Positions 1,641 through 58,214 are shown, numbered from the stretch's first letter. The stretch is DNA of 64,000 nt from Candidatus Sericytochromatia bacterium (GCA_036675505.1 JAKFEW010000058.1:7516-71515); one strand, 5' to 3'. Notes: generated from the sequence alone by a model not told the origin. Translations and numbers: made by a program.

Positions 1641-2603
1641 ATGTCGACCGTCGACCGCAAGCAGATCCCCACGACGCCCGCCGTGGCCGCGACCGACAAG
1701 GTCGCGAAGCAACCGGCCAGCCAACAGCCGGCCGATAGCCGGCCCGTGACCGGCGCGCAGCCCACCGTCACCACGGACGAACAGGCGCTCGGGACCGACA
1801 AGGGCCCGCGGACGTCCATCGGCTTGCCCGGCCAGCCCGGCGCGGCCGCGGCGCCGGTGCCGCCTTACGCGAAGAGCTTCGGCAGCGCGAGCTACGTGAA
1901 GGACGGCGGCGACGGCAACCTGGTCGGCCTGGCCCGCCGCGTCGCGGCGACGAGCCCCGAGCTCGCCAACGGCGCGTTCGGGAAGAACGCCAAGCTCGGC
2001 AAGCTGAGCGCGGACGACGTGAAGACGCTCCAGAAGCACCTCGAGTCGAAGGGTTACAGCGTGGGCGAGAAGGGCACCGACGGAAAATACGGGCCACAGA
2101 CCCACCGCGCCCTCGCGGCGTATCTGGCGGGCGAGCAGCCGGTCGACGGTAGCAAGCCTGTCGACGGCGAAATCCCCGCCGGCGGCCCGATGCAGGGCGC
2201 CGGCATGGAGAAAGACGGCCTGCGCATCCCCGCCGGCGAGGGCCGCGCCACCACCTTCTGGAACGGCCACATGGCCTACAAGGGCAAGTACGACATGAAC
2301 AACCGCCAGAACAAGGGCCTGGGCGCCTGGGGCGACAAGAACGCGCCGACCGACTACTTCGTGGCCCTGCCGGTCAAGGACAAGAAGTGGCACAACCAGA
2401 AGATCCTGATCACCAACCCGGCGACCGGCCAGCAGGTGGTGGCCCGGGTGCAGGACAAGGGCCCTGGGGCCAGCACCGGCGCGAAGATCGACCTCTCGCC
2501 GGTCACGATGGAGGCGATCGGCGGCAACTTCAAGGGGGACCTCAAGCGGGTGAAATTCGAGTTCGCGCCGGCCGACGCGCCCGTGGGACCGGTGCGGCGT
2601 TGA
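1641..2603 (+). CDS. Peptidoglycan-binding domain plus RlpA-like double-psi beta-barrel (DPBB) domain protein
   Basis: ATG at 1641 with GGAGGA 8 nt upstream. PG_binding_1-like segment (DDVKTLQKHLESKGYSVGEKGTDGKYGPQTHRALAAYL). The C-terminal segment KILITNPATGQQVVARVQDKGPGASTGAKIDLSPVTMEAIG matches the RlpA/DPBB core (VRVTN..NGRSVVVRVNDRGP…IDLS). Confidence 0.6.
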   Translation: MSTVDRKQIPTTPAVAATDKVAKQPASQQPADSRPVTGAQPTVTTDEQALGTDKGPRTSIGLPGQPGAAAAPVPPYAKSFGSASYVKDGGDGNLVGLARRVAATSPELANGAFGKNAKLGKLSADDVKTLQKHLESKGYSVGEKGTDGKYGPQTHRALAAYLAGEQPVDGSKPVDGEIPAGGPMQGAGMEKDGLRIPAGEGRATTFWNGHMAYKGKYDMNNRQNKGLGAWGDKNAPTDYFVALPVKDKKWHNQKILITNPATGQQVVARVQDKGPGASTGAKIDLSPVTMEAIGGNFKGDLKRVKFEFAPADAPVGPVRR

Positions 2604-2664
2604 GCCAAGCGATGCCTGCCCGGGTACAAATCCCTTGATCGCTCGTCCGTGAAGGGGGCATGCC

Positions 2665-3192
2665 ATGGCCGATATCGGAGCAACCGGGGGCTCGAGCCCG
2701 CTCAACCAGGGCGCGGCGCGCACGGCGCCGCTCGACGCGCGTAAATCGCCCGAGCCTCAGGCGAAGATCGGGACCGACGGCCTGACGCTTTCGACGGGCA
2801 GCAAGGCCGAGCCCCAGTACTTCGGCCATTCCCCGCGCGTCACGGTCTCGCTGATGATGAAGCAGCCGATCTGGGCCGACGATCGCAGCGACGTCACGCC
2901 GGCACAATGGGCCCAGATGCCCGAGTCGCAGCGCCAGGAGATCCTCGCGCTGATCCCGCGCGAGGCCGCCAAGGCCCAGTTCCTCTCGAACGTCGATCCG
3001 GCGGTGGTCAAGGCCAAGGCCGAACTCGGCGCGCTGGCCAAGAAAGCCTGGGAGGGCGCCCTGGCCTGGAGCGCGGAGCAAGACGCGAAGAAGGCCCGGG
3101 CGGGGGAGGCCCCGCCGGCCCCGACCGCAGACGCCCAGGTCGATCGGCTGAACGCGCTGATCGAATCGAGCGAGCCGAAGCCCACGCCCTGA
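2665..3192 (+). CDS. Hypothetical protein (175 aa), Ala/Lys-rich C-terminus
   Basis: ATG at 2665 with GAAGGGGG upstream. No recognisable family. Confidence 0.4.
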   Translation: MADIGATGGSSPLNQGAARTAPLDARKSPEPQAKIGTDGLTLSTGSKAEPQYFGHSPRVTVSLMMKQPIWADDRSDVTPAQWAQMPESQRQEILALIPREAAKAQFLSNVDPAVVKAKAELGALAKKAWEGALAWSAEQDAKKARAGEAPPAPTADAQVDRLNALIESSEPKPTP

Positions 3193-3221: not shown

Positions 3222-4040
3222 TCAGATGTCGCTGGTCAGGATGAAGCGCCAGTCGCTGCGTCCCATCCGGTGGTGCACGATGCTGGCCGTGGCGATCGGC
3301 AGCACCCCGCGGGCCGCCAGCGCGATCGCCATCGGGTCGCCGTGCGGCGCGCAGAACATGTGGGTGTGACCCACCTGCGGCCCCTTGCGGTTGGTCGGCG
3401 CGACGCCCTTGCCCAGGGGATCCCAGGTCACATGCACGAGCGGCATCGGCTGGCCGGTGGAGCCCAGCACCAGGTCCTTCACGCCGCCCAGCGACAGCAT
3501 GCCGATGTGGCCGCGGAACTGCTCGATCAGCGGCTTGAGGTCCGCGATCGTGGCGGCGTCCACGCCGTAGATGCCGAGCTCGGGGCCGAGCTCGAAGAGC
3601 GCCCAGCGGAAGTGCCGCACCAGCCTCACGATGCGATTCGGGCTGCCGTCGCCCGGGTTCATGCTGATGCCGTAGCCGCGCGGCGCCCGGGCATAGTTCA
3701 GCGGGAAATCGCCCTTCGCGAGCATGGTGAGCGGCAGGTGGCGGCCGCGGTAGTCCGGGTGGACCTTCACGTCGCAGAGATACCAGACCCGCGTCGGCGC
3801 CTCACCCACGCGCAACGGCACGGTGCGCAGCACGCCGGCACCCACGGCGGCCAAGCGCTCGCCGTCCATCATCGCGAGATACTTGAGGTCGCCGAGGCGC
3901 TCGAAGAAGGCGAAGTAATCCTCGCCGTGGTCGATCTGGAACGTGTCCTCGCCGAGCGGGTAGGTGGCGATGCGTTCTAGGTCGGCCACCGGGCCCTGGA
4001 GCGCGGCGCGGTTGCGGGCGTTCACCCAAACACGGCGCAT
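3222..4040 (-). CDS. Putative GNAT-fold N-acyltransferase; alternative TTG start at 4076
   Basis: GNAT motif-A-like segment VKVHPDYRGRHLPLTMLAKG. ATG at 4040 has AAGGA-like upstream sequence. The TTG at 4076 would overlap the upstream gene's stop. Confidence 0.4.
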   Translation of the reverse strand: MRRVWVNARNRAALQGPVADLERIATYPLGEDTFQIDHGEDYFAFFERLGDLKYLAMMDGERLAAVGAGVLRTVPLRVGEAPTRVWYLCDVKVHPDYRGRHLPLTMLAKGDFPLNYARAPRGYGISMNPGDGSPNRIVRLVRHFRWALFELGPELGIYGVDAATIADLKPLIEQFRGHIGMLSLGGVKDLVLGSTGQPMPLVHVTWDPLGKGVAPTNRKGPQVGHTHMFCAPHGDPMAIALAARGVLPIATASIVHHRMGRSDWRFILTSDI

Positions 4041-4072: not shown

Positions 4073-5188
4073 TCAAGGGCGGGACGGGACATCGGCCGCG
4101 AAGGCGGCCACGATTTCCTGGTAGAAGAACGAGCGATCGGCCGACGCGAGCTCGCGGGACAACTTGGCGTCGACGCCGACGTGGCCCTGGAGCTCTTCGG
4201 CGAGATCATAGTCGCCATTGAGCCTTCGCGCGAGGATCGCCCCGCCGGGCACGAGCGCCGCGGGCAGGCGGGCGAACAGCGCACGCAGATCCTCGCGCGG
4301 CATCCAGTCGGTGATGTTGGAGGTGTGGATCAGGTCGTAGGGCTGGGACGCCGCCAGGGGACCGAGGTTGGCCTCGAGCGTGCCCGCGTGGAGCCGCAAG
4401 TCCGCGAGGCCGCGGCGACGCAACTGGCCGCGTGCCTCGGCGCGCATGTAGGCGGGCAGGCCGGCCTCGCCGGGCGGATAGGCGTCGCGGAAGACCTGGT
4501 ACAGGTAGAGGTTGTCGGGCGGCTTCCAGCGCTGGAGCGCCGTCGCGAAGACCTGGGCGAAGTGCGCGGCGAAGGACCGCTGCGTCGAGTACATGACCGC
4601 GCGCGCGCCGAACAGCTCGACCAGGCGCTCGCGCCGGAAGACCCGCTGGAAAATCGCGAACCAGTCGGGGCTCACGAGGGCCTCGCCGGGCCTCGCGACC
4701 GGGTCGAGCCCACGGGCGGCGAACGCGGCCGCGAGCTCGCGGAAGAGCACCTCGAAGCGGCCGGCGCGGTTCAGGCCGAAGGCGAGCTGGGCGGGGCGGG
4801 CGTCCCACCAGTCGCGCGTCGCGGCCGGCAGCTCGATGCGCAGCCGGCCGTACACGCGGGCGGGCGCCGCCGGGTCATGGCCCGGGTCGGCGCCCAGCAG
4901 CGCGAGCTGATCCGCCGGGTCGAGGCGCACGGCCCCCCAGGCGCGCAGCATCGTGAGGTGGAGCTGGGCCGGGTTGGGGTCGACGGCGTCAACCACCGCG
5001 ACCTCCGGCCGGGCCAGCACGGCGAGCGCGTTGCAGCCGCCCGAGGCGATCATGAGCACGCGCAGGGGCCGGCGGCGGCGCTCGGCGAGCAGCCTGATCA
5101 CCGCCAACTCGGCGCCGGGATCCTCGCGGACCTGCGAGAACGCCAGCTCCGGCACCGGCTGAGCCTCAGCCGGCGAGGAGATCGTCAT
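4073..5188 (-). CDS. BtaA-like / DUF3419 S-adenosylmethionine-dependent transferase family protein
   Basis: 371 aa. Conserved blocks (LYLYQVFRDAYPPGE, DLIHTSNITDWM) characteristic of the DUF3419/BtaA N-terminal SAM-binding family. Its start overlaps the upstream gene by 23 nt. Confidence 0.5.
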   Translation of the reverse strand: MTISSPAEAQPVPELAFSQVREDPGAELAVIRLLAERRRRPLRVLMIASGGCNALAVLARPEVAVVDAVDPNPAQLHLTMLRAWGAVRLDPADQLALLGADPGHDPAAPARVYGRLRIELPAATRDWWDARPAQLAFGLNRAGRFEVLFRELAAAFAARGLDPVARPGEALVSPDWFAIFQRVFRRERLVELFGARAVMYSTQRSFAAHFAQVFATALQRWKPPDNLYLYQVFRDAYPPGEAGLPAYMRAEARGQLRRRGLADLRLHAGTLEANLGPLAASQPYDLIHTSNITDWMPREDLRALFARLPAALVPGGAILARRLNGDYDLAEELQGHVGVDAKLSRELASADRSFFYQEIVAAFAADVPSRP

Positions 5189-5942
5189 ACAGCGTCCAGA
5201 ACCAGTGCGCGCCCAGGGCGAGCCCGAGGGCGACCTCGGCGCGGGCGCGTGGCTCGGCCCAGGCGGGGGCGGCGATCGCGAAGAGGTCGCGCGCGTGGAT
5301 GACGTCGAGCTCCTCGTGGACCTCGTAGTGGCGCTGGCTGCCGGGCGCGACCCAGCCGCGGGCGTGGATTGTGCGAGCGATCGCCGCGCTCACCCCCACG
5401 TAAGCATGCTCGACCGCGCCGAGCGCCGCCGCACCCGCCTCCGGCCCGCGCGTCAGGCTCCATCCGAGCAGCGCCTGTTCGAATGCGAGCACGGCGGTGG
5501 GCGCCGGCATGGCGAGCTCCTGGGGCGTCGCGCCGAGCGCGAGCAGGTAGCCGAGGTAGGTGTGCTTGTGGCTGGCCGCGGCTGTGCCGTGGCCATGCTC
5601 CTCGGCCACGTTGCGGCTCAGCGCGAGCCGCTCCTCGAGCACCGGCATGCGCGCGAGGGTGGCCGCGAGCGCCCGCGAAAAGCCCTCCACCGCGTGGCGG
5701 AACGGCAGCTGGCTGGCCCTGAACGCGTCGCGATCGGTCGCCGGGCCCGTCATCCAGGCCAGGTAGGGGTGGGCGGCGAAGTCGTAGGCCGCATCGACGG
5801 CGGCGATCGCCGCTTCCAGGGTCGGGAGCGCCGCGATCTCGGCGGGCGCCAGCGCCGGCGGCCGGCACGGGCCGAGCGGGGTCGCTCGCACGAGGCGCTC
5901 GGCTGCGTCGATCGGGCTCGGGAGGGCTTCGCCAGGGGTCAT
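5166..5942 (-). CDS. Heme-oxygenase-like fold iron-containing redox enzyme (TenA/PqqC/CADD/HDO superfamily)
   Basis: 258 aa from ATG at 5942. Several E..H motifs (EEHGHG, HKHTYLGY, EHAY, EVHEELDVIHARD) are consistent with diiron HO-like oxidases. The upstream ORF-track extension is a GC artefact. Confidence 0.5.
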   Translation of the reverse strand: MTPGEALPSPIDAAERLVRATPLGPCRPPALAPAEIAALPTLEAAIAAVDAAYDFAAHPYLAWMTGPATDRDAFRASQLPFRHAVEGFSRALAATLARMPVLEERLALSRNVAEEHGHGTAAASHKHTYLGYLLALGATPQELAMPAPTAVLAFEQALLGWSLTRGPEAGAAALGAVEHAYVGVSAAIARTIHARGWVAPGSQRHYEVHEELDVIHARDLFAIAAPAWAEPRARAEVALGLALGAHWFWTLYDDLLAG

Positions 5943-6077: not shown

Positions 6078-6854
6078 GAGCCGCCCATGCCGTCGATGTC
6101 GTTCCCGGACCTGATGAGCAAGAAGGAATCGCTCGGGCGCCCCTTGATCATGGGTCACCGCGGCGCGATGGGCCACGCGCCGGAGAACACGCTCGCGAGC
6201 TTCAAGCTCGCCCACGAGATGGGCGTGGATGCCGTCGAGCTCGACGTGCACCTCTCGGCCGATGGCGTGCTCGTCGTGCACCACGACGAGACCCTGGAGC
6301 GCACGACCAGCGGCAACGGCGAGATCTCGGCGATGACGCTCGAACAGCTCCGCCAGCTCGACGCCGGCGCGAAGTTCTCCAAGGACTACGCCGGCGAGCG
6401 CATCCCGACGCTCGAGGAGGTCCTGACCTGGGCCAAGGGCGTCGAGCTGCCGGTGGTGATCGAGTTCAAGCGCAACCCCAACGTGCGCGCGATCGTCGAG
6501 GCGGCGATCGGCCTGGTGGAGCGCATGCAGGCCGGCGCCGACGTGGCGTTCATCTCGTTCGACCACTTCGTGCCTGCGGGCCTCAAGCAGGCCCGCCCGC
6601 AGTGGACGACCGGCGTGCTCTACGTGGGCCGCCCTGTCGATCCGGTCGCGCTCGCGGCGAGCGCGGGCGCGGACGGGTTGCTGCCGAACTTCTACTTCGT
6701 GGAGCAGGAAGACGTGGCGCGGGCGCACGCGGCGCAGAAGTGGGTGGGCTGCTGGGCGCCGAACTCGGAGCGGGAGCTGGGCTACGCGATTTCGCAGGGG
6801 GTGGACATGATCGGGACGAACTTCCCGGACCGGCTCCAGGCGCTGTTGAAGTAG
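6078..6854 (+). CDS. Glycerophosphodiester phosphodiesterase (GDPD family)
   Basis: ATG at 6078 with GAGGAGGA 7 nt upstream. HRGAMGHAPENTL and ELDVHLSADGVLVVHHD catalytic motifs. Confidence 0.75.
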   Translation, partial: EPPMPSMSFPDLMSKKESLGRPLIMGHRGAMGHAPENTLASFKLAHEMGVDAVELDVHLSADGVLVVHHDETLERTTSGNGEISAMTLEQLRQLDAGAKFSKDYAGERIPTLEEVLTWAKGVELPVVIEFKRNPNVRAIVEAAIGLVERMQAGADVAFISFDHFVPAGLKQARPQWTTGVLYVGRPVDPVALAASAGADGLLPNFYFVEQEDVARAHAAQKWVGCWAPNSERELGYAISQGVDMIGTNFPDRLQALLK

Positions 6855-6898
6855 CTTCCGCCTCGCTCTGGAGGCATCTTCTCATACCAGGACACCAA

Positions 6899-6935
6899 GC
6901 CCCTTCCCCAGGTGGGTTAGTGGAAGGGGTGTGGC
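6899..6935. repeat. Degenerate/truncated copy of the 45-bp TIR repeat (ccccttccccaGGTGGGTTaGTGGaaGGGGtg)
   Basis: Aligns to the repeat family found at 11428, 26305, 26420, 36807 and 43579 with an internal deletion. It sits at the boundary between the high-GC region and the low-GC island. Confidence 0.4.
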
Positions 6936-7218
6936 CAAAGCGCGCAATACCCAAGATACCCTCGCATCAGCCGCCTGATTGGCGTAGCGGCGTTCTTGGT
7001 CTCGCTTGATTCGGAATAATTTGAACACGTCGGTCTCGGCGGTGGCGCAAGACCGGATCTGCATGGTGCCTGGGCGGGCATCTGCCCAGGCCGACCCGAC
7101 CGCACTACTCCATGCCAACGAACAGCAAGTGGCCCTCAGGAAGCCCGTGGCCTCGGTCAGTCCGAATCCACGCGCCGGCTCCCATAGACCACTGAGGCCA
7201 CCAGATTTTAAGGAGTCG

Positions 7219-7662
7219 TCATTCCGATCGCGCGAGCGCGACGGGGATCGCTGCCACAAGGTCTTCCAGTCGATCGGGAACAACTAGGTTCTCGGCCGGA
7301 GTGAATTTGAAGCCCTCGCGTGCGCCGGCATTCCGGGTGGGTGTGAGCGTAATAGCGCCGTCGGCCAGAATGAGATCTACGTATCGTGTGCCCTTCATGA
7401 AGGTCGCCCAGGACTTTACGTTTGCCGCGTCGAGCACTGGCTGGAACAAGATCTTGTACTGCTCCTGCGACGGTTGAGGCGCATCGTAAACCGAAGCCGA
7501 GAGGGCCTCACGGACCTTCGATGCGATGGTAATCGCATCTACTGCCCCCTCCTCGATGACCATTACAGGGACACCAGAAACCCAGATTCCCTTGGTCGTT
7601 CGATGATTCGGGAGGATGAAAAGGAATGATCCTCGTTGGTAAAGCGATGCGCCTTTTTTCAT
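7219..7662 (-). CDS. Hypothetical protein (147 aa) in the low-GC island
   Basis: ORF with ATG at 7662. It lies 10 nt downstream of the preceding gene's stop. No recognisable family. Confidence 0.4.
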   Translation of the reverse strand: MKKGASLYQRGSFLFILPNHRTTKGIWVSGVPVMVIEEGAVDAITIASKVREALSASVYDAPQPSQEQYKILFQPVLDAANVKSWATFMKGTRYVDLILADGAITLTPTRNAGAREGFKFTPAENLVVPDRLEDLVAAIPVALARSE

Positions 7663-7671
7663 TTTTCGCCT

Positions 7672-8235
7672 CTACGGGAAAACAAAGAACCGAACCGTGA
7701 CACCTAGTCGCGCTGCTTCCTGGATCGCTTGATTGACCACTAATTGTTGCTCAGCACTGGGTATCCTGGGAATTGCGATGTCGAGAGCGCGTCCTGTGAT
7801 TTCACTTGGTTGCACGATCACACCCTTCCAGGCCCGGCCTTCGAACTTTGCGATCGCGTTGATCTGCTTCGCCAACTCGCTCTTCAACTTTGATGGTATC
7901 TGATAGCTGGCCGCATTGAGATCCATCGTCTTGATGCTCGTCGCTATGCCATCCTCCATTCGGTCGATGACCGGGAAGTCGAACGGAAGGTGTGGGGATC
8001 GCCCCAGCGCTTCTTCGATTAGCCTGCCGCGTTCGAGCGGGGGAAGCCCCCAAACGCTGGGCGAGAGACCATGGCCACCTGGCGTCGTAACACCACATGC
8101 CTTTTTTGCGATTCGATCGCGGAACGACGGCGGAATCAGGTCTGCGGCGGCCTTCATTACGAACGGCGCGCCTGCGACAATGATCTTGCCCGCCGCGTAG
8201 CCAGCAGCCAATTCGGCGGCGTCCTGCGGCGTCAT
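7672..8235 (-). CDS. Hypothetical protein (187 aa) in the low-GC island; possibly toxin-like, speculative
   Basis: ATG at 8235 overlaps the stop of the upstream gene by 1 nt (TAATG). No family recognised by eye. Confidence 0.4.
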   Translation of the reverse strand: MTPQDAAELAAGYAAGKIIVAGAPFVMKAAADLIPPSFRDRIAKKACGVTTPGGHGLSPSVWGLPPLERGRLIEEALGRSPHLPFDFPVIDRMEDGIATSIKTMDLNAASYQIPSKLKSELAKQINAIAKFEGRAWKGVIVQPSEITGRALDIAIPRIPSAEQQLVVNQAIQEAARLGVTVRFFVFP

Positions 8236-8783
8236 TAGGAGTACTTGAAGGGCGGGTCGTAGGGTACGGCCTGCAACTTGTAGCCCTGAGCCGCCGGCGT
8301 TGACTCAGCCTGCCGGTAGACGTCCTGCTCGAGCGCATAGATGCTGACAGGGTCGTCGTTCTCCAGGTAGACCCATCCCTCAGGAGTACTGACTGCCAAC
8401 GAGGTGCTGGGGTCGACGCCGGCGCCGTTCAGCGAGGCGGTTGATTGGGACATCTCGAAGGCCTTCAGGTCTACGAGGTCGTCAACCCCATCAGCGCCTA
8501 GCTCGGGCCAGTCGGCGGCCAGTGCATCCCAGACGCTCTGGGAGACGCTCATCAACTTCCGCTTCGGCGCGACAGTAGCTACTGCCTGAAAGGGCGCCTG
8601 CTGTGCCGTCGGTGAAAAACCAGCTTGGCGGTCAGGATGGGCTGCTGACATGAAAGCAACGCCATCGCAAGGAGCAAGGACGTTCCCCGGGAAAACATCC
8701 GGCATGAGGACATGAGCTTTGCTCCATTGTGAAACATCGGTTTTCCCTTGCCGCCGCAGCGGCTCAATTGTCTTCCCCAGCAT
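8235..8783 (-). CDS. Hypothetical protein (182 aa; an acidic C-terminal half) in the low-GC island
   Basis: ATG at 8783. Downstream-coupled to 7672..8235. Start uncertain; an internal Met (MSVSQ…) is also possible. Confidence 0.35.
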   Translation of the reverse strand: MLGKTIEPLRRQGKTDVSQWSKAHVLMPDVFPGNVLAPCDGVAFMSAAHPDRQAGFSPTAQQAPFQAVATVAPKRKLMSVSQSVWDALAADWPELGADGVDDLVDLKAFEMSQSTASLNGAGVDPSTSLAVSTPEGWVYLENDDPVSIYALEQDVYRQAESTPAAQGYKLQAVPYDPPFKYS

Positions 8784-8823
8784 GCCCTTACTCGGCGTAC
8801 CTCAAACCCTTGCTCGGTTAACG

Positions 8824-8853
8824 ATTGTAAACATGCGGACAGAGTGCATTTAA
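8824..8853 (-). promoter_or_regulatory. Candidate sigma70-type promoter for the island operon (-35 TTAAAT, 18-nt spacer, -10 TACAAT on the minus strand)
   Basis: AT-rich stretch 8800-8870 between the megasynthase stop and the island genes. Hexamers read directly from the sequence. Confidence 0.25.
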
Positions 8854-8974
8854 TGCGAGTTATCCGACCATGTCCTCTGCGAATTCCCGGCCCCAGCTGC
8901 CCGCCGCGAGAGCGCGCGGGAGTCGACGACTCGACGGCGGCATAGAAAAGGCCGATCTGCCCCCGCGGCGAGCC

Positions 8975-17520
<8,546 letters not shown>

Positions 17521-23500: not shown

Positions 23501-26500
23501 GGCGACGACGCGAGGTCGCGCACCGGCGCGAGCGCCTCGACCAGCCGCTCGAAGGGCACGTCCTGGTTGGCCATCGCGTCGAGCAGGGTCCGTCGCACGC
23601 GTGCGGCCAGCTCGCCGAACGTCGGGTCGCCGGCGAGGTCGCCGCGCACCACCAGCATGTTGAGGAAGCACCCGATCAGCGGCTCGAGGCCGGGGTGGTG
23701 GCGGCCGGAGATCGGCGTGCCGACACAGAGGTCGTCCTGCCCGCTCCAGCGCCCGAGCACCGTCAAGAAGGCCGTGAGCGCGACCATGAAGCGCGTGGCG
23801 CCGGTGGTCCGCCCGAAGGTGTCGGCCGCCGCGACCGCAGCCGGCGGCAGCCAGGCGGCGAGGGTCGCCCCGCGGCCGGTCCGGGCGGCCGGGCGCGGAT
23901 GATCGGTCGGCAACGCGAGGCGGGCCGGCGCGCCGGCCAGCCGCTCGCGCCAATAGGCGAGCTGCGCGTCGAGCGCGGGCGCCTCCCGCGTGGCCTGCTG
24001 CCAGATCGCGTAATCGGCGTACTGCAGCGGCAGTGCCGGCAGCGCGGTCGGATCGCCCACGGGGTAAAGCGCCGCGAGCTCGTGCATCAACACGGCGAGC
24101 GACCAGCCGTCGCCGATCGCGTGGTGGAGCGTGACGCCGAGCAGGTGCTCCTCGGGCGTAAGGCGGATCAAGCTGGCGCGGAACAGCGGGCCCGCCGCGA
24201 GATCGAAGGGCCGGCTGGCTTCGGCGACCAGCCGGGCGCGTGCTTCAGCCTCCGCGACGTCGGCGGGCAGCGCCGCCAGGTCGAGCAGCGGCAGCGGCAG
24301 CGCCGCAGGCGGCGCGATCGCCTGCACCGGCCCGTCCGGCCCCTCGGGCAGCGACGTGCGCAGCGCCTCGTGGCGTGCCGTGATCGCGTCGAGCGTGCGG
24401 CCGAGCGCCACGCGGTCCAGCGGCCCGCGCAGCCGCATCGCGCCCGCCACCTGGTAGCCGGCCGCCCCGGGGGCCAGGCGCTCGAGGAACCACATCCGCC
24501 GCTGCGCGAACGAAGCCGGCACCACCGCGGGGCGGGGCGTCGCGGCCGTCGGCGGCGGCAAGGCCTCGCCGGCCGCCGCCAGCCGGTCCGCGATCTCGCC
24601 GGCGAGCCGGGCCAGGCTCGGCCCCTCGAGCAACAACGCCATCGGCAGCGCCACGCCGAGGTCGCGCCGCACCCGGTTGTTCAGCTCCATGCCCACGAGC
24701 GATCCGACGCCCAGCGTGGTGAGCGGGGCCTCAGGGTCGAGCTTCACCGCCGCCACGTCGAGCAGCCGGCCGAGCTCGCGCGTGAGGGCGTCGCGCAAGG
24801 CCGCGAGCCGCTCGGCACGCGGCAGCGCCCGCAACGCGGCGGCGTCGAGGCCAGGGGAGGGGACATCGAGGCCAGGGACATCGAGGCCGGGGATCCCGCC
24901 ACCGGCACCCGAGCCGGGACCCGACGCGGGGACCACGCGCTCGCCGATCGGCGCGGCGCCCAACGCCCGCAGCGGCGCCGCGGGGCGCTCTTCGAGCCAG
25001 TGGCGCTCTCGGCGCCAGGGATAGGTGGGCAGGTGAACGTGTTCCCCGGCCGGCACGAGCGCGTCCCAGTCGATCACAGCCCCCAACGCCCACAGCGCGC
25101 CGGCCGCCTCGCGCGCCGCGAGCGGCTCGGCGCGGTCCCGGCGGAGCACGCCGATCACGTCCGGCGGCGCGCCGCGCTCGGCGAGCACGTCCGCGACCGC
25201 CGGGGCGAGCGCGGGGTGGGCGGAGAGCTCGAGCACGATCGGCGCTTTTTCGGCGGCGGCGATCGCCGCGACCGCCTCGGCGAGCCGCACCGGCCGGCGC
25301 ATGTTGGCCCACCAGTAGGCCGCGTCGAGCGGGCCTGCGAGCCGCCCGCCGATGACGGTCGACCACATGGGCAGCACCGGCGGCCGCGGCACCACATCCG
25401 CGAGCGCCGCGAGCAGGTCCTCGCGCAGCGGCTCCACGACGGGGCTGTGCGAGGCGACCAGCGTGCCGCGCACCAGCCGGGCGAAGCCGCCCTGCTCCTC
25501 GACCGCGGCGACCACGGCCTCGAGCGCCGCCTGCTCGCCGGCAAGCAGCGTCTGGCGGGGGCCGTTCACGGCGGCGATCCAGGCGCGGTCGGCGTGGGGG
25601 GCGATCGCCGCCAGCGCCTCGGCCTCGGACAAGGCCACGGCCGCCACGGTGCCCGCGCCGGCCATCGTCTGCATGATCCGCGCCCGCCGCGCGACCACGC
25701 GGCAGGCGTCGTCGAGCGTGAGGCCGCCGGCCGCCCAGGCCGCGGCGATCTCGCCGAGGCTGCCGCCCACCACGGCGGTCGGCGTCACGCCCCAGCTGCG
25801 CAGGAGCGCGGTGAGGCCGACCTGGAGAGCGAATTGCAGGGGCTGGGCGACGTCACCGCGCTGCCAGCGTGCGTCGCCGCCGTCCGAAGCCATCGCGTCG
25901 AGCAACGACCAGGCACCCAGCTCCCCCTCGGCGAGGAAGGGGGCGATCGCCGCATCCACCTCGGCCACGGCCGCGCGGAACGCCGGCTCGGCCAGCAGCT
26001 CGCGACCCATCCCGGCGCGCTGGGCGCCCATGCCGGGATAGAGGAACACGATCGGCCGGGCGCGGCCGGCCGCGCGGGCGAAGCCCGTGGGATCCGCGTC
26101 CGCCACGTCCGCGAGGCGCGCGAGCAGGCCATCGCGGTCGGCGGCGGCGATCGCGCGGCGGATCGGCAGGTGGGCACGGCGGCGCAGGGCCGTGTGGCAG
26201 ACGTCGGCGGGGACGAGGGCAGGGTCGGCCGCGAGGGCGGCGTGCAGGCGGCGGGCGAGGGCGGCCAGGGCCGCGGGGTCGCGGGCGGAGAGGGGCAGCA
26301 CCAGCACCCTTTCCCTCTCCGGGTGGGTTCGTGGGGGGGCTGGAAATGGGGAGAGGTCCCCGCAGGGGGGTGAGGGGGCTCTCGGCGCCTGGAAAGCCTC
26401 CCCACACCCACTCCGTGGGAGCTCCCCTCCTTTCCAGCCGCCCCACGAACCCACCCCGGGAGCAAAAGGGTGCTCCAGGATCACATGGCAATTCGTCCCC

Positions 26501-43576: not shown

Positions 43577-43749
43577 GGAACCCTTTCCCTCTTTCCAGCT
43601 CCCCCACGAACCCACCCGGTGGAGAGGTGCTCCGCAGGGGCGGTGAGGGGGTCTCCCAGCTTGCTCCGAGACCCCCTCACCGGAAAGCCCACCAGGCCTG
43701 CGCCTGGTGGGCTTTCTGTCCTCTCCCCCACCGGGGAGAGGGAGGGGTG
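43577..43749. mobile_element. MITE-like repeat element (about 173 bp) filling the hppA / HD-GYP intergenic region
   Basis: 5' TIR ccctttccctctttCCAGCTCCCCCACGAACCCACCCgg, an inverted orientation of the family motif. Shared internal block GGAGAGGTGCTCCGCAGGGGCGGTGAGGGGGTCTC. Two perfect hairpins (GGTGAGGGGGTCTC…GAGACCCCCTCACC and GAAAGCCCACCAGG cctgcg CCTGGTGGGCTTTC). Degenerate inverted TIR at the 3' end (cctctcccccaccggggagagggaggggtg). Confidence 0.5.
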
Positions 43750-56528: not shown

Positions 56529-58214
56529 ATGCGTCGAGGAATCGCAATCGCGATCATGATGTTGGTGGGCGCGTGCCAGCCGCCCGGCGCCACCAACGGG
56601 GGCGGCAAGGCCACGCGCACGAACGCCGCGCCGTCGACCTCGCCGTCGACCGCACCGAGCGCGGCGGGTCCGCGCCCGAAGGCCTCCCCCGCGCCAAAGG
56701 CTTCGGCCGGCACGGGCGCCACCGCCACCTCGAGCGCCGCCCCGATCACCGACGTCACCAAGCTCGGCAGGCTCCAGGCGCCGCCTGGCGCCACCAGCAA
56801 GCTCACCGGCACGATCAAGGTCGACGCGGCGTACATGGTCTCGGCCGGCGCGGGCAACATCCTGAGCCACAACGGCGCGCAGATCGTGGCCGCCGGCGGC
56901 CTGAACATGATCGCCGCGGGGGCCGGGAACCTCGTCGCCGCGGGCGGGCTGAACCTGGTCGCGGCCGGTGGCCTGAACCTGGTCGCGGCCGGCGGCCTCA
57001 ACCTGGTCGCGGCGGGCGGCCTGAACATGATCGCGGCCGGCGCTGGCAACGCCCTGCCGGCCAACGCGGGCGCCTACGCCCTCGCCCAGGCCGCGACCGC
57101 GCCGCGCGCCGGCGACCAGCTGCCGGCGGCCGGCATGCTCGTCTCGGTCGCCTCGCTCACCACGCGGCAATACCTCCCGCTCGGCCAGGACGCGAGCGGC
57201 CAGCCCGTGTACGTCGTCTTGTCCGACGCGTCCGGCGGCTACGAGCTCTACGTGCCCGAAGGGGCAGACACGAACCTGCTCGTGATCGTCCAGCCTCCCG
57301 GCAAGCCGGATCCCCGCCTCGTTTTCAACGTCTTCACGCCGCGCGCCGAGGAGACGCGCCGGATCGTCGACGAGGACTCGGCCCTGGGCGCCCGCTACCT
57401 GCGCACCTGCATGATCGCCCGCCTGAACGAGACGCTGATCAACGACGACCCGGCGGCGATGATGGCGATGTTCAACGGCGAGGCGGCCGCGATGGAAGGC
57501 ATCAGCGAGATCCTGATCCGCTTCGCGAAGTATTACCGGGCGATCGCCATCTCGAAGGGCATCGGCCGCGACACCGACCCGCGGGTGCGGTCGGCGATGT
57601 CGCAGGCGATCGCCGACGCCGCCCTCGCGATGCTCGACATCGAAGGCGTCGAGATGGACCCGGTGCTCGCCCCCCAGTGGACCGGCGACCGCCGGGCCCG
57701 GGCCGCCCAGGTGCTCGGCGCGGCCATGCGCGACCTGCGCGAGCGCGGCGCGCGCTACCTGGCCGACCCGGCGGACCCGACGCGATACCGCGAGCGCATC
57801 GACCCGGCCTTCCTCGCGAAGGTGAACGGTCCGCAGGAGCGCGAGGTCGGGCATTTCGACGTGAGCACGATTCCGCCGTTGATCGAGCCGAACCGCCGCA
57901 TCCTGCTCCCGGCCGACCTCACCACGTTCGTCATCGACGAGTACCTCGCGCCCCACCGCGACTGGGTCTGGACGCCGCTCTCGAACCTGTATACCTGGAT
58001 CGAGCCGGACCCGGCCGCCTCGGCGGCCGCCAGCCGCGAAGCGGGCGAGCAGTTCTCGAACACCGTCCGCTTCTCCGCGGCGGCGCTCGCAGGGACCCTC
58101 GCCATCAACCTCGCCCCCCTGGGTGAGGGTCCGGACGCCCAACCCGGCACGCCCGCCGGCCTGGCGGCCGTCGCGGCGGCCCGCGCCTTCGACCCCGCGG
58201 AGGAAAGACCTTGA
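56529..58214 (+). CDS. Lipoprotein with an N-terminal tandem 8-residue repeat array (LNLVAAGG)n
   Basis: ATG at 56529 with GGAGG upstream. Lipobox LVGAC. Repeats AAGGLNMIAAGAGNLVAAGGLNLVAAGGLNLVAAGGLNLVAAGGLNMIAAGAGN. Confidence 0.6.
   Translation: MRRGIAIAIMMLVGACQPPGATNGGGKATRTNAAPSTSPSTAPSAAGPRPKASPAPKASAGTGATATSSAAPITDVTKLGRLQAPPGATSKLTGTIKVDAAYMVSAGAGNILSHNGAQIVAAGGLNMIAAGAGNLVAAGGLNLVAAGGLNLVAAGGLNLVAAGGLNMIAAGAGNALPANAGAYALAQAATAPRAGDQLPAAGMLVSVASLTTRQYLPLGQDASGQPVYVVLSDASGGYELYVPEGADTNLLVIVQPPGKPDPRLVFNVFTPRAEETRRIVDEDSALGARYLRTCMIARLNETLINDDPAAMMAMFNGEAAAMEGISEILIRFAKYYRAIAISKGIGRDTDPRVRSAMSQAIADAALAMLDIEGVEMDPVLAPQWTGDRRARAAQVLGAAMRDLRERGARYLADPADPTRYRERIDPAFLAKVNGPQEREVGHFDVSTIPPLIEPNRRILLPADLTTFVIDEYLAPHRDWVWTPLSNLYTWIEPDPAASAAASREAGEQFSNTVRFSAAALAGTLAINLAPLGEGPDAQPGTPAGLAAVAAARAFDPAEERP
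56895..57050 (+). repeat. About 7 tandem copies of a 24-bp coding repeat (ctgaacctggtcgcggccggcggc)
   Basis: Read directly. Encodes the LNLVAAGG octapeptide repeats. Potential length-variable tract. Confidence 0.6.

Follow-up and report, generated by a model that had tools for sequence, protein, structure and literature searches.

The closest described counterparts of the locus reported here are the toxin/immunity pair CdiA-CT(o11)/CdiI(o11) of contact-dependent growth inhibition (CDI) in Escherichia coli EC869 (TA271) and its equivalent from Yersinia pseudotuberculosis YPIII (4G6U, 4ZQU; PF21111/PF07262). The active site of this toxin group has been published as Glu177, Asp198, Ser209 and Lys211 in the numbering of TA271 (PMC9086364). 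Orphan cdiA-CT/cdiI and rhs-CT/immunity modules (Poole et al. 2011) are located, according to the passage devoted to them in the same article, downstream of full-length cdiA or rhs genes, have no start codon and begin at the pre-toxin motif. A lipoprotein-based route is represented by SitA/SitI, polymorphic toxins of myxobacteria that are delivered by TraAB outer-membrane exchange and comprise six families with an escort domain of ~375 amino acids (aa). Here we investigated a stretch of 64,000 nucleotides (nt) from Candidatus Sericytochromatia bacterium (GCA_036675505.1 JAKFEW010000058.1:7516-71515), termed the window, in which an island of low guanine-cytosine (GC) content at positions 6860-8975 adjoins a polyketide synthase/non-ribosomal peptide synthetase (PKS/NRPS) cluster and holds three open reading frames (ORFs) on the minus strand, designated ORF1 to ORF3. 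The island is likely a decayed polymorphic lipoprotein-toxin locus that retains an intact EC869-type DNase module and a CdiI-type immunity gene. It is a known kind of toxin/immunity cassette and does not represent a new system.

The nuclease module and its immunity gene

A previous sequence-only reading of the window had recognised no family in any of the three ORFs, and scans with PADLOC, PHROGs and NCBIfam yielded nothing useful for them; word-indexed homologue searches returned only the three ORFs themselves plus one relative of ORF3. Profile and structure searches gave a different result. Residues 73-181 of ORF2 match Pfam PF21111, the EC869-like CDI toxin restriction-endonuclease-like domain, with an E-value of 6e-17 (62.5 bits; gathering cut-off 27), and the sequence matches the PDB entries 4zqu_A (2e-7) and 4g6u_A (6e-7). 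In the PDB sequence alignment E74, D91, S100 and K102 coincide column for column with Glu177, Asp198, Ser209 and Lys211 of the published active site. S100 and K102 are invariant in an alignment of 108 sequences; for E74 and D91 the conservation is 90% or more. An AlphaFold (AF2) model of ORF2 built on this alignment reaches a predicted local distance difference test score (pLDDT) of 92-98 over residues 61-187 and of 54-74 over residues 1-60. The Foldseek search that the sequence-only reading had proposed as a check retrieved the two solved toxins, namely 4g6u_A (E 5.5e-10, root-mean-square deviation 2.1 Å over 131 columns) and 4zqu_A (template modelling [TM] score 0.80), as the only matches below an E-value of 1e-2, the next one lying above it; the identity to the solved toxin in the structural alignment is 28%. 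On the basis of profile and model ORF2 is confidently predicted to be an EC869/o11-type PD-(D/E)XK DNase toxin domain with a PD-(D/E)XK / type IIS restriction-endonuclease-like fold, and by analogy with the solved toxins it is probably active as a Zn-dependent DNase.

An exhaustive HMMER search recovered 1424 relatives of ORF2 in the representative library, nearly all of which match the nuclease part only, at the C-terminus of proteins of 120-2650 aa. Their carriers include Rhs, SpvB/FG-GAP/Rhs and LysM proteins. The carriers in 41 genome loci are Rhs/YD proteins, actinobacterial proteins of ~500 aa or short orphan ORFs, and a lipobox is found in none of them. The homology to Rhs-type and other carriers begins exactly at residues 1-6 of ORF2 (P0082, P0117, P0101, P0084), and since the alignments of the Rhs-type proteins P0082 and P0117 start at residues 1-2, ORF2 corresponds to a complete exchangeable C-terminal module that consists of a pre-toxin region of ~60 aa and the nuclease. 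A role in translocation or entry is possible for residues 1-60. ORF2 has a single close relative (67-70% aa identity), which is encoded on contig L003, and a search of metagenomes and viral contigs with an alignment of close C-terminal modules returned nothing. On L003 the whole of ORF2 is equivalent to the final 187 residues of a protein that spans 378 aa or more and whose gene is cut at the 5' end by the contig; these residues are followed by a homologue of ORF3 (L003 1150-1593). Short toxin ORFs of 114-170 aa with immunity genes, which resemble classical orphan modules, are found in several genomes (for example L006, L011, L022, L023 and L033).

ORF3 alone has no match in the Pfam scan and only a weak precomputed match to PF07262. 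Its homologues follow directly on the toxin domain in 25 or more of the 41 loci (E 8e-23 to 4e-4), and the loci with this toxin-then-immunity order belong to many phyla and range from Sphingomonas to Chloroflexi and Actinobacteria. A profile of 22 proteins of the ORF3 family retrieved the structures 2gkp_A (1e-6), 4zqv_A (1e-5), 4zqu_B (5e-5) and 4g6u_B (2e-3), and six of the 22 members match PF07262 (best 1e-10). The AlphaFold model of ORF3, calculated from a two-sequence alignment, has a pLDDT of 85. Foldseek matched it exclusively to five CdiI-o11-type structures (2gkp, 4zqw_B, 4g6u_B, 4zqv, 4zqu_B) with E-values of 8e-10 to 5e-8 and TM scores of 0.65-0.81. The identity in the structural alignments is 15-18% to CdiI and 17% to NMB0488 of Neisseria meningitidis (2GKP), the best structural and profile match, which has been deposited as a protein of unknown function. 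With these profile and model matches ORF3 is confidently predicted to be the cognate CdiI-type immunity protein of the EC869-type DNase. The region of the toxin that is aligned to the β-hairpin contacted by CdiI contains no gaps, and the model of ORF2 has two short strands at residues 134-141; by analogy ORF3 probably neutralises the toxin by β-augmentation.

Among the options that the sequence-only reading had offered for the island, the toxin/immunity module is thus borne out by profiles and models, and a defence module finds no match in PADLOC. Between the window and L003 the immunity proteins are 48% identical and the toxins 70%; the immunity protein has diverged much faster, and this asymmetry is expected for a co-evolving toxin/immunity interface. 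A Gemmataceae locus (L038) carries two tandem CdiI-like genes (2539-3171, 3274-3879) after an EC869-like toxin.

The disrupted lipoprotein carrier

ORF1 was listed as 182 codons on the minus strand (8235..8783), but gene callers and homology back only the last 105 of them (8235-8552, start at 8552). Judged from these comparisons, the 182-aa version is an artefact of ORF listing, and the 105 codons appear to be a fragment of a larger, disrupted gene. The beginning of this gene is found upstream in another frame, with the ATG at 8737-8735, the codon of the lipobox Cys30 at 8650-8648 and a stop at 8579. The encoded signal peptide aligns with the N-terminus of an intact 821-aa ORF on contig L045 (MSGRGARLMFANRILSRGTPLVLAMALLAC, followed by QQP); both sequences conform to the lipobox rule (PROSITE PS51257-type) with the Cys at residue 30. 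The +2 residue of the lipoprotein is Gln and the +7 residue Thr, and a +2/+7 pattern of this kind was taken as outer-membrane sorting in the SitA paper. The match to L045 follows the frame of the signal peptide up to TAKLV and that of ORF1 from SPTAQQ on. The deletion of a single nucleotide at 8615-8619 accordingly places the signal peptide in a different frame from ORF1, and it is because of this first frameshift that the signal-peptide frame stops at 8579.

The N-terminal domain in the frame of ORF1 shares 72-73% aa identity with residues 1-95 of P0005 (equivalent to residues 63-157 of the 821-aa protein P0153) and is related to nothing else. It has no match in Pfam, NCBIfam, PHROG, PADLOC or the PDB, relatives are absent from species-representative genomes, JGI metagenomes, IMG/VR and plasmids, and a homologue of ORF1 beside the toxin was found in none of the 41 other loci. 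P0005 is located on contig L045 of run SRR17380409, which also yields a contig 100% identical to the window, and run SRR17380414 holds both loci as well; P0005 is very probably a paralogue from the same genome. The open frame of L045 extends further upstream to a length of 821 aa and has been called as such in SRR17380414 (P0153). This intact protein contains Pro/Ser-rich linkers, a weak FlgD-Ig-like match, a hydrophobic segment and an unclassified C-terminus of ~100 aa that differs from the toxin tail of the window and has no sequence match in the PDB. A downstream stretch with a GC content of 0.42-0.50 harbors a 108-aa ORF (L045 4150-4476) that could be the immunity gene of P0153. NCBIfam and Pfam returned nothing useful for the 821-aa paralogue, its C-terminal ~100 aa or the 108-aa ORF. 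The Logan contig L002 ends at window position 8365, within the part of the N-domain that is common to the paralogue; this end is consistent with an interruption of the assembly by a repeat and suggests that the genome contains the N-domain at least twice.

The second lesion is located at the junction with the toxin tail. The homology to L045 stops at GGCTACAAGTTGCAG (AAQGYKLQ), about position 8271, and the frame of the N-domain ends at a TAA (8237-8235), where the frame of the toxin tail is already open, one nucleotide out of phase. The homology to L003 covers ORF2 from residue 2 on plus about five to six codons upstream of its ATG in the same frame (ALQVLLM-TPQD in the window versus GLQNIPL-TPQE in L003), and about 20 nt at the junction match neither L045 nor L003. 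The ATG of ORF2 corresponds to an internal Leu codon (TTG) of the L003 homologue, overlaps the stop of ORF1 by one nucleotide (TAATG) and is not preceded by a Shine-Dalgarno sequence. The end of the N-domain homology at ~8271 and the shift of one base between the frames indicate that the centre of the carrier, ~500-600 aa in the paralogue, has been lost and that the joint is out of frame. Ka/Ks (the ratio of non-synonymous to synonymous substitution rates) is ~0.11 both for the N-domain compared with L045 and for the C-terminal module compared with L003; both parts have thus evolved as coding sequence, and the disruption is recent relative to those divergences. The Logan contig L001 reproduces the window with 100% identity across both lesions, and L002 covers the junction, too.

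The toxin gene is broken twice, and its signal peptide, N-domain and tail are located in three different frames, whereas ORF2 is complete, none of its four catalytic residues having been lost, and the intact ORF3 is preceded by a ribosome-binding site of its own. The operon of three unknown genes that the sequence-only reading had proposed is hence replaced by a frameshifted and internally deleted lipoprotein toxin gene, of which ORF1 is a fragment, followed by its immunity gene. The coordinates of the three minus-strand ORFs in that reading were correct, but the spacers of 1 and 10 nt were not: ORF1 and ORF2 overlap by one nucleotide and ORF2 and ORF3 are separated by 9 nt. The features of the locus are compiled in Table 1.

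Table 1. Features of the island and of the intact carrier gene. Positions refer to the window unless a contig is named.
Feature	Position	Strand	Description and basis
Non-coding spacer	8738..8974	-	Between the PKS/NRPS stop (8975) and the start of the toxin gene; GC 0.62
5' remnant of the toxin gene, own frame	8579..8737	-	Predicted type II (lipoprotein) signal peptide MFHNGAKLMSSCRMFSRGTSLLLAMALLSC, followed by QQP
Frameshift 1	8615..8619	-	1-nt deletion in a T5 run (plus-strand A5); window GGTTTTTCA versus L045 GGTCGTTTCA
N-terminal carrier region, ORF1 frame	8271..8614	-	Linker SPTAQQAPFQAVATVAPKRKL and ~95-aa domain, MSVSQSVW to AAQGYKLQ
Junction and frameshift 2	8236..8270	-	Centre of the carrier missing; DNA alignment and tblastn
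ORF2, 187 aa	7672-8235	-	Predicted EC869/o11-type CdiA-CT PD-(D/E)XK DNase module
ORF2 residues 1-60, pre-toxin region (TPQDAAELAAGYAAGKIIVAGAP...)	8056..8235	-	Aligns with the C-terminal modules found on Rhs and further carrier proteins
ORF2 residues 61-187 and stop codon, predicted DNase domain	7672..8055	-	Catalytic E74, D91, S100, K102
9-nt spacer with GAGG Shine-Dalgarno (TAGAGGCGAAAAATG)	7663..7671	-	Shine-Dalgarno overlaps the ORF2 stop; read from the sequence
ORF3, predicted CdiI (PF07262)-type immunity gene	7219..7662	-	Homologues, family profile, model
Low-GC (0.61) spacer	6855..7218	.	Between ORF3 and the convergent GDPD gene
Intact 821-aa lipoprotein gene P0153	L045 1588-4053; L046 1280-3745		Canonical type II signal and lipobox

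Composition and surroundings of the island

The compositional anomaly at 6860-8975, which the sequence-only reading had described as a drop in GC over ~2 kb, is real. The island has a GC content of 0.593 compared with 0.725 in the remaining window and is the lowest of all 2116-bp windows in the 64 kb (z = -3.3), the others having a mean of 0.726, a standard deviation of 0.041 and a minimum of 0.654. The value of 45% reported for 7621-7680 is exact (0.45), and the T-run motif noted there begins at 7654. The checks of codon usage and coding signal proposed in the same reading are in line with this picture: GC at third codon positions is 0.70, 0.63 and 0.63 in the three ORFs of the island versus 0.86-0.97 in the host genes of the window, and the coding-type pattern of a higher GC content at the first than at the second codon position (GC1>GC2) is kept in all three of them.

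The terminal PKS/NRPS gene has the same orientation as the ORFs of the island, which begins 1 nt past the stop of this gene (8975). The spacer between this stop and the toxin gene contains a conserved ribosome-binding stretch (AAGGGAAAACCG) directly upstream of the ATG at 8737; DNA homology to the paralogue on L045 reaches ~14 nt beyond the ATG in the upstream direction, to window position 8751, and no further. The sigma70-like promoter that had been suspected at 8800-8870 was not recovered by a consensus scanner, which found no sigma-70 promoter in 6700-9100. No Rfam family, tRNA or convincing terminator was detected in or beside the island. An integrase or transposase is likewise absent, and neither a tRNA nor direct repeats mark an insertion; the lack of an integrase or transposase indicates that it is not a classical integrative island.

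A low GC content within high-GC flanks is also seen in the loci of L003 and L045. L003, the contig with the closest homologue, originates from another high-GC genome of another sample (SRR22388034), where the cassette is located in a different flank and again has a low GC content. The alien composition in all three loci and the different flank of the nearest relative fit mobile toxin cassettes, and the low GC content would be a reflection of their mobile, foreign nature. A foreign or mobile origin of the cassette, as put forward by the sequence-only reading, is therefore plausible. The host of the window is a high-GC diderm, judged from its Omp85 gene.

The left spacer (6855-7218) shows no homology to the compared loci, and its ORFs lack a Pfam match. 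It contains a hairpin at 6900-6929 (CCCCTTCC...GGAAGGGG) that folds no better than shuffled sequences (z = 0.37) and that includes a 13-nt core, GGTGGGTTAGTGG, at 6911-6923. The exact core is also located at 11448, 26322, 26443 and 43604, which amounts to five observed copies compared with 0.17 expected, and the flanks are weakly similar. The degenerate copy of a terminal inverted repeat that had been noticed at the left edge hence holds for the 13-nt core, but the similarity outside of it is weak. Apart from the core at 6911-6923, the copies of this repeat family (core GGTGGGTTCGTGG) span 11447-11484, 26303-26377 / 26400-26474 and 43580-43617. Two arms of 38 nt, at 11447 and 43580, are 97% complementary and separated by 32 kb, and the copy at 11447 encodes part of an inter-domain linker. 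The copy at 26303-26474 is a 75-nt inverted pair with an RNA fold of -140 kcal/mol (z = -9.2), and it is located within an uninterrupted PKS ORF of 3429 aa. The family looks like an element of the type of miniature inverted-repeat transposable elements (MITE) or repetitive extragenic palindromes (REP) that is tolerated in frame in megasynthase linkers.

To the left of the island a GDPD gene (6087-6854, plus strand), a haem-oxygenase-like PF14518 gene (5166-5942, minus strand) and a DUF3419 gene (4073-5155, minus strand) are located. These genes may encode tailoring enzymes, in which case the island would perhaps lie inside the cluster and not at its 3' end. A tandem 24-nt repeat (8 aa, AAGGLNLV-like) is present at 56886-57050 within an ORF (56529-58214, plus strand) that has no NCBIfam match.

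Explanations of the locus and its likeness to known systems

The likely explanation is the decay of a lipoprotein toxin gene. The ancestral gene would have encoded a type II signal peptide with a lipobox, a conserved N-terminal carrier region, a long centre and an exchangeable C-terminal module composed of the ~60-aa pre-toxin region and the EC869/o11-type PD-(D/E)XK DNase, followed by the CdiI-type immunity gene, and its product would have been a polymorphic lipoprotein toxin of the outer membrane. The 1-nt deletion just past the lipobox would then have parted the signal peptide from the N-domain, and an out-of-frame internal deletion or recombination would have attached the beginning of the C-terminal module to the N-domain at codon ~95. 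As the DNase is no longer made as a lipoprotein, its lipidation, export and delivery to neighbours have presumably ceased. ORF3 would be the functional survivor of the locus: it would bind the β-hairpin of the toxin by β-augmentation as CdiI does, protect the cell against the same type of toxin delivered by relatives, and also guard against ORF2 made by re-initiation at the TAATG overlap.

Several observations weigh against this explanation. ORF2 is fully intact, with an ATG exactly at the boundary of the module, and the TAATG overlap resembles translational coupling, so that ORF2 could still be expressed. The first frameshift is located in a homopolymer (A5) and is documented by one assembly besides the source record, possibly from the same reads; a sequencing error is possible at this site. 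Moreover, the homologue on L003 lacks its N-terminus, and we infer the in-frame position of an EC869-type tail on a lipoprotein scaffold. Two loci of the carrier family were detected, and its 'polymorphic' character rests on two alleles. It is conceivable, though rather doubtful, that the scaffold represents an undescribed family of outer-membrane lipoprotein polymorphic toxins that carries a CDI-type DNase, with ORF2 and ORF3 forming a coupled addiction module that holds the biosynthetic region. The scaffold would in that case be analogous to myxobacterial SitA and unrelated to it in sequence; if it proved to be a new family for the delivery of lipoproteins, the SitA-type concept would extend past the six families described.

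An addiction module of the toxin-antitoxin type is an unlikely alternative. Cytoplasmic ORF2 would be produced by re-initiation at TAATG and neutralised by ORF3, and the loss of the locus would kill the cell, thereby stabilising this region of the chromosome including the adjacent biosynthetic genes. The intact ORF2 with its ATG and catalytic residues, the 1-nt overlap of stop and start, the strong Shine-Dalgarno sequence of ORF3 and the standalone toxin ORFs with immunity genes in other genomes are compatible with such a role, and orphan CDI toxin modules are described in a review as toxic on expression. However, the ATG of ORF2 has no Shine-Dalgarno sequence and no promoter was found, the upstream ORF on which coupling would depend is a mere piece of a gene, nothing points to a differential stability of the two proteins, and the decay of the gene trivially yields the same arrangement.

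A functional trio, in which ORF1 would act as adaptor or chaperone, ORF2 as an effector exported by a type VI system or vesicles and ORF3 as immunity protein, is improbable. In type VI systems effectors are commonly preceded by small adaptor genes, and the three genes are tightly packed and co-directional, but ORF1 shows homology to a segment within the N-terminal part of the 821-aa lipoprotein and not to any adaptor family, it lacks a match in Pfam, NCBIfam and PADLOC, and the lipobox signal persists upstream of it in another frame. The toxin is not accompanied by a homologue of ORF1 in the 41 other loci, and those genes of the window that were scanned include none of a secretion system. ORF1 is unlikely to be an independent gene at all. 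Programmed -1 frameshifts at GGTTTTTC and near TAATG, which would fuse all parts into a lipoprotein toxin of ~340 aa, are very improbable: both frame changes have the same direction (-1) and the first site lies on a U-rich run, but both sites depart from the canonical X XXY YYZ heptamer, the search for a stimulatory structure or an Rfam element was negative, the intact paralogue does without any frameshift, and a gene with two efficient frameshifts would be most exceptional. The self-resistance, transport or regulatory cargo of the PKS/NRPS cluster that the sequence-only reading had considered, for which only the position 1 nt after the terminal stop on the same strand speaks, is effectively refuted by the confident identification of both intact proteins as nuclease toxin and immunity protein, by homologues that occur with Rhs and other toxin carriers and not with biosynthetic clusters, and by a codon composition sharply unlike that of the cluster genes; evidence for a functional tie of ORF2 and ORF3 to the cluster was not found.

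If the locus is a decayed lipoprotein-toxin gene, it provides a snapshot of the decay of a polymorphic toxin in which the pair of toxin tail and immunity gene has been kept. The cassette of EC869-type DNase and CdiI, familiar from carriers of the CDI and Rhs types, would then have reached a lipoprotein carrier locus in a high-GC diderm. The three "unknown genes" are a false lead for the PKS/NRPS cluster and should be excluded from predictions of its boundary and function.

The comparison with described systems is closest for the EC869 and YPIII pairs. The toxin and immunity folds, the Glu/Asp/Ser/Lys active site and the order of toxin and immunity gene are shared with the window, thereby suggesting that Zn-dependent DNase activity and neutralisation by β-augmentation are probably shared as well. 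The identity in the structural alignments is low (28% for the toxin, 15-18% for the immunity protein), and ORF2 has no counterpart of the entry domain at the N-terminus of the EC869 CT. In contrast to a CDI system the window lacks a CdiA filament, CdiB and the VENN motif, and its carrier is a broken lipoprotein. No haemagglutinin-repeat or two-partner secretion (TPS) domains were found in the Pfam scan of the island ORFs. A complete CdiB/CdiA/CdiI system with type V secretion was consequently rejected, the upstream region consisting of a lipoprotein gene fragment and then the PKS/NRPS gene.

The carrier recalls SitA/SitI. The paralogue and the reconstructed window gene share with it the lipobox, a conserved N-terminus, a variable C-terminal nuclease of a kind also used by other toxin systems and an immunity gene directly downstream, and further similarities are several loci per genome, a foreign composition and the sorting pattern of Gln at +2 and Thr at +7. 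The conserved stretch comprises ~95-157 aa here compared with ~375 aa in the escort domain, and the copy in the window is non-functional as a lipoprotein. The likeness is one of architecture, the 821-aa paralogue having no match in the NCBIfam and Pfam libraries, which may lack models of the SitA escort domains.

With the orphan modules, finally, the locus differs in layout and agrees in its state. ORF2 has an ATG, it is preceded by the 5' end of a carrier and not by a 3' core, and it is located beside a PKS/NRPS gene; with a start codon and without a full-length carrier upstream it was not classified as a classical orphan module. As in those modules, a pair of toxin tail and immunity gene is detached from a working delivery protein, and the immunity gene is probably expressed. 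Like them, the pair may serve as a substrate for recombination and as a source of protection against foreign toxins.

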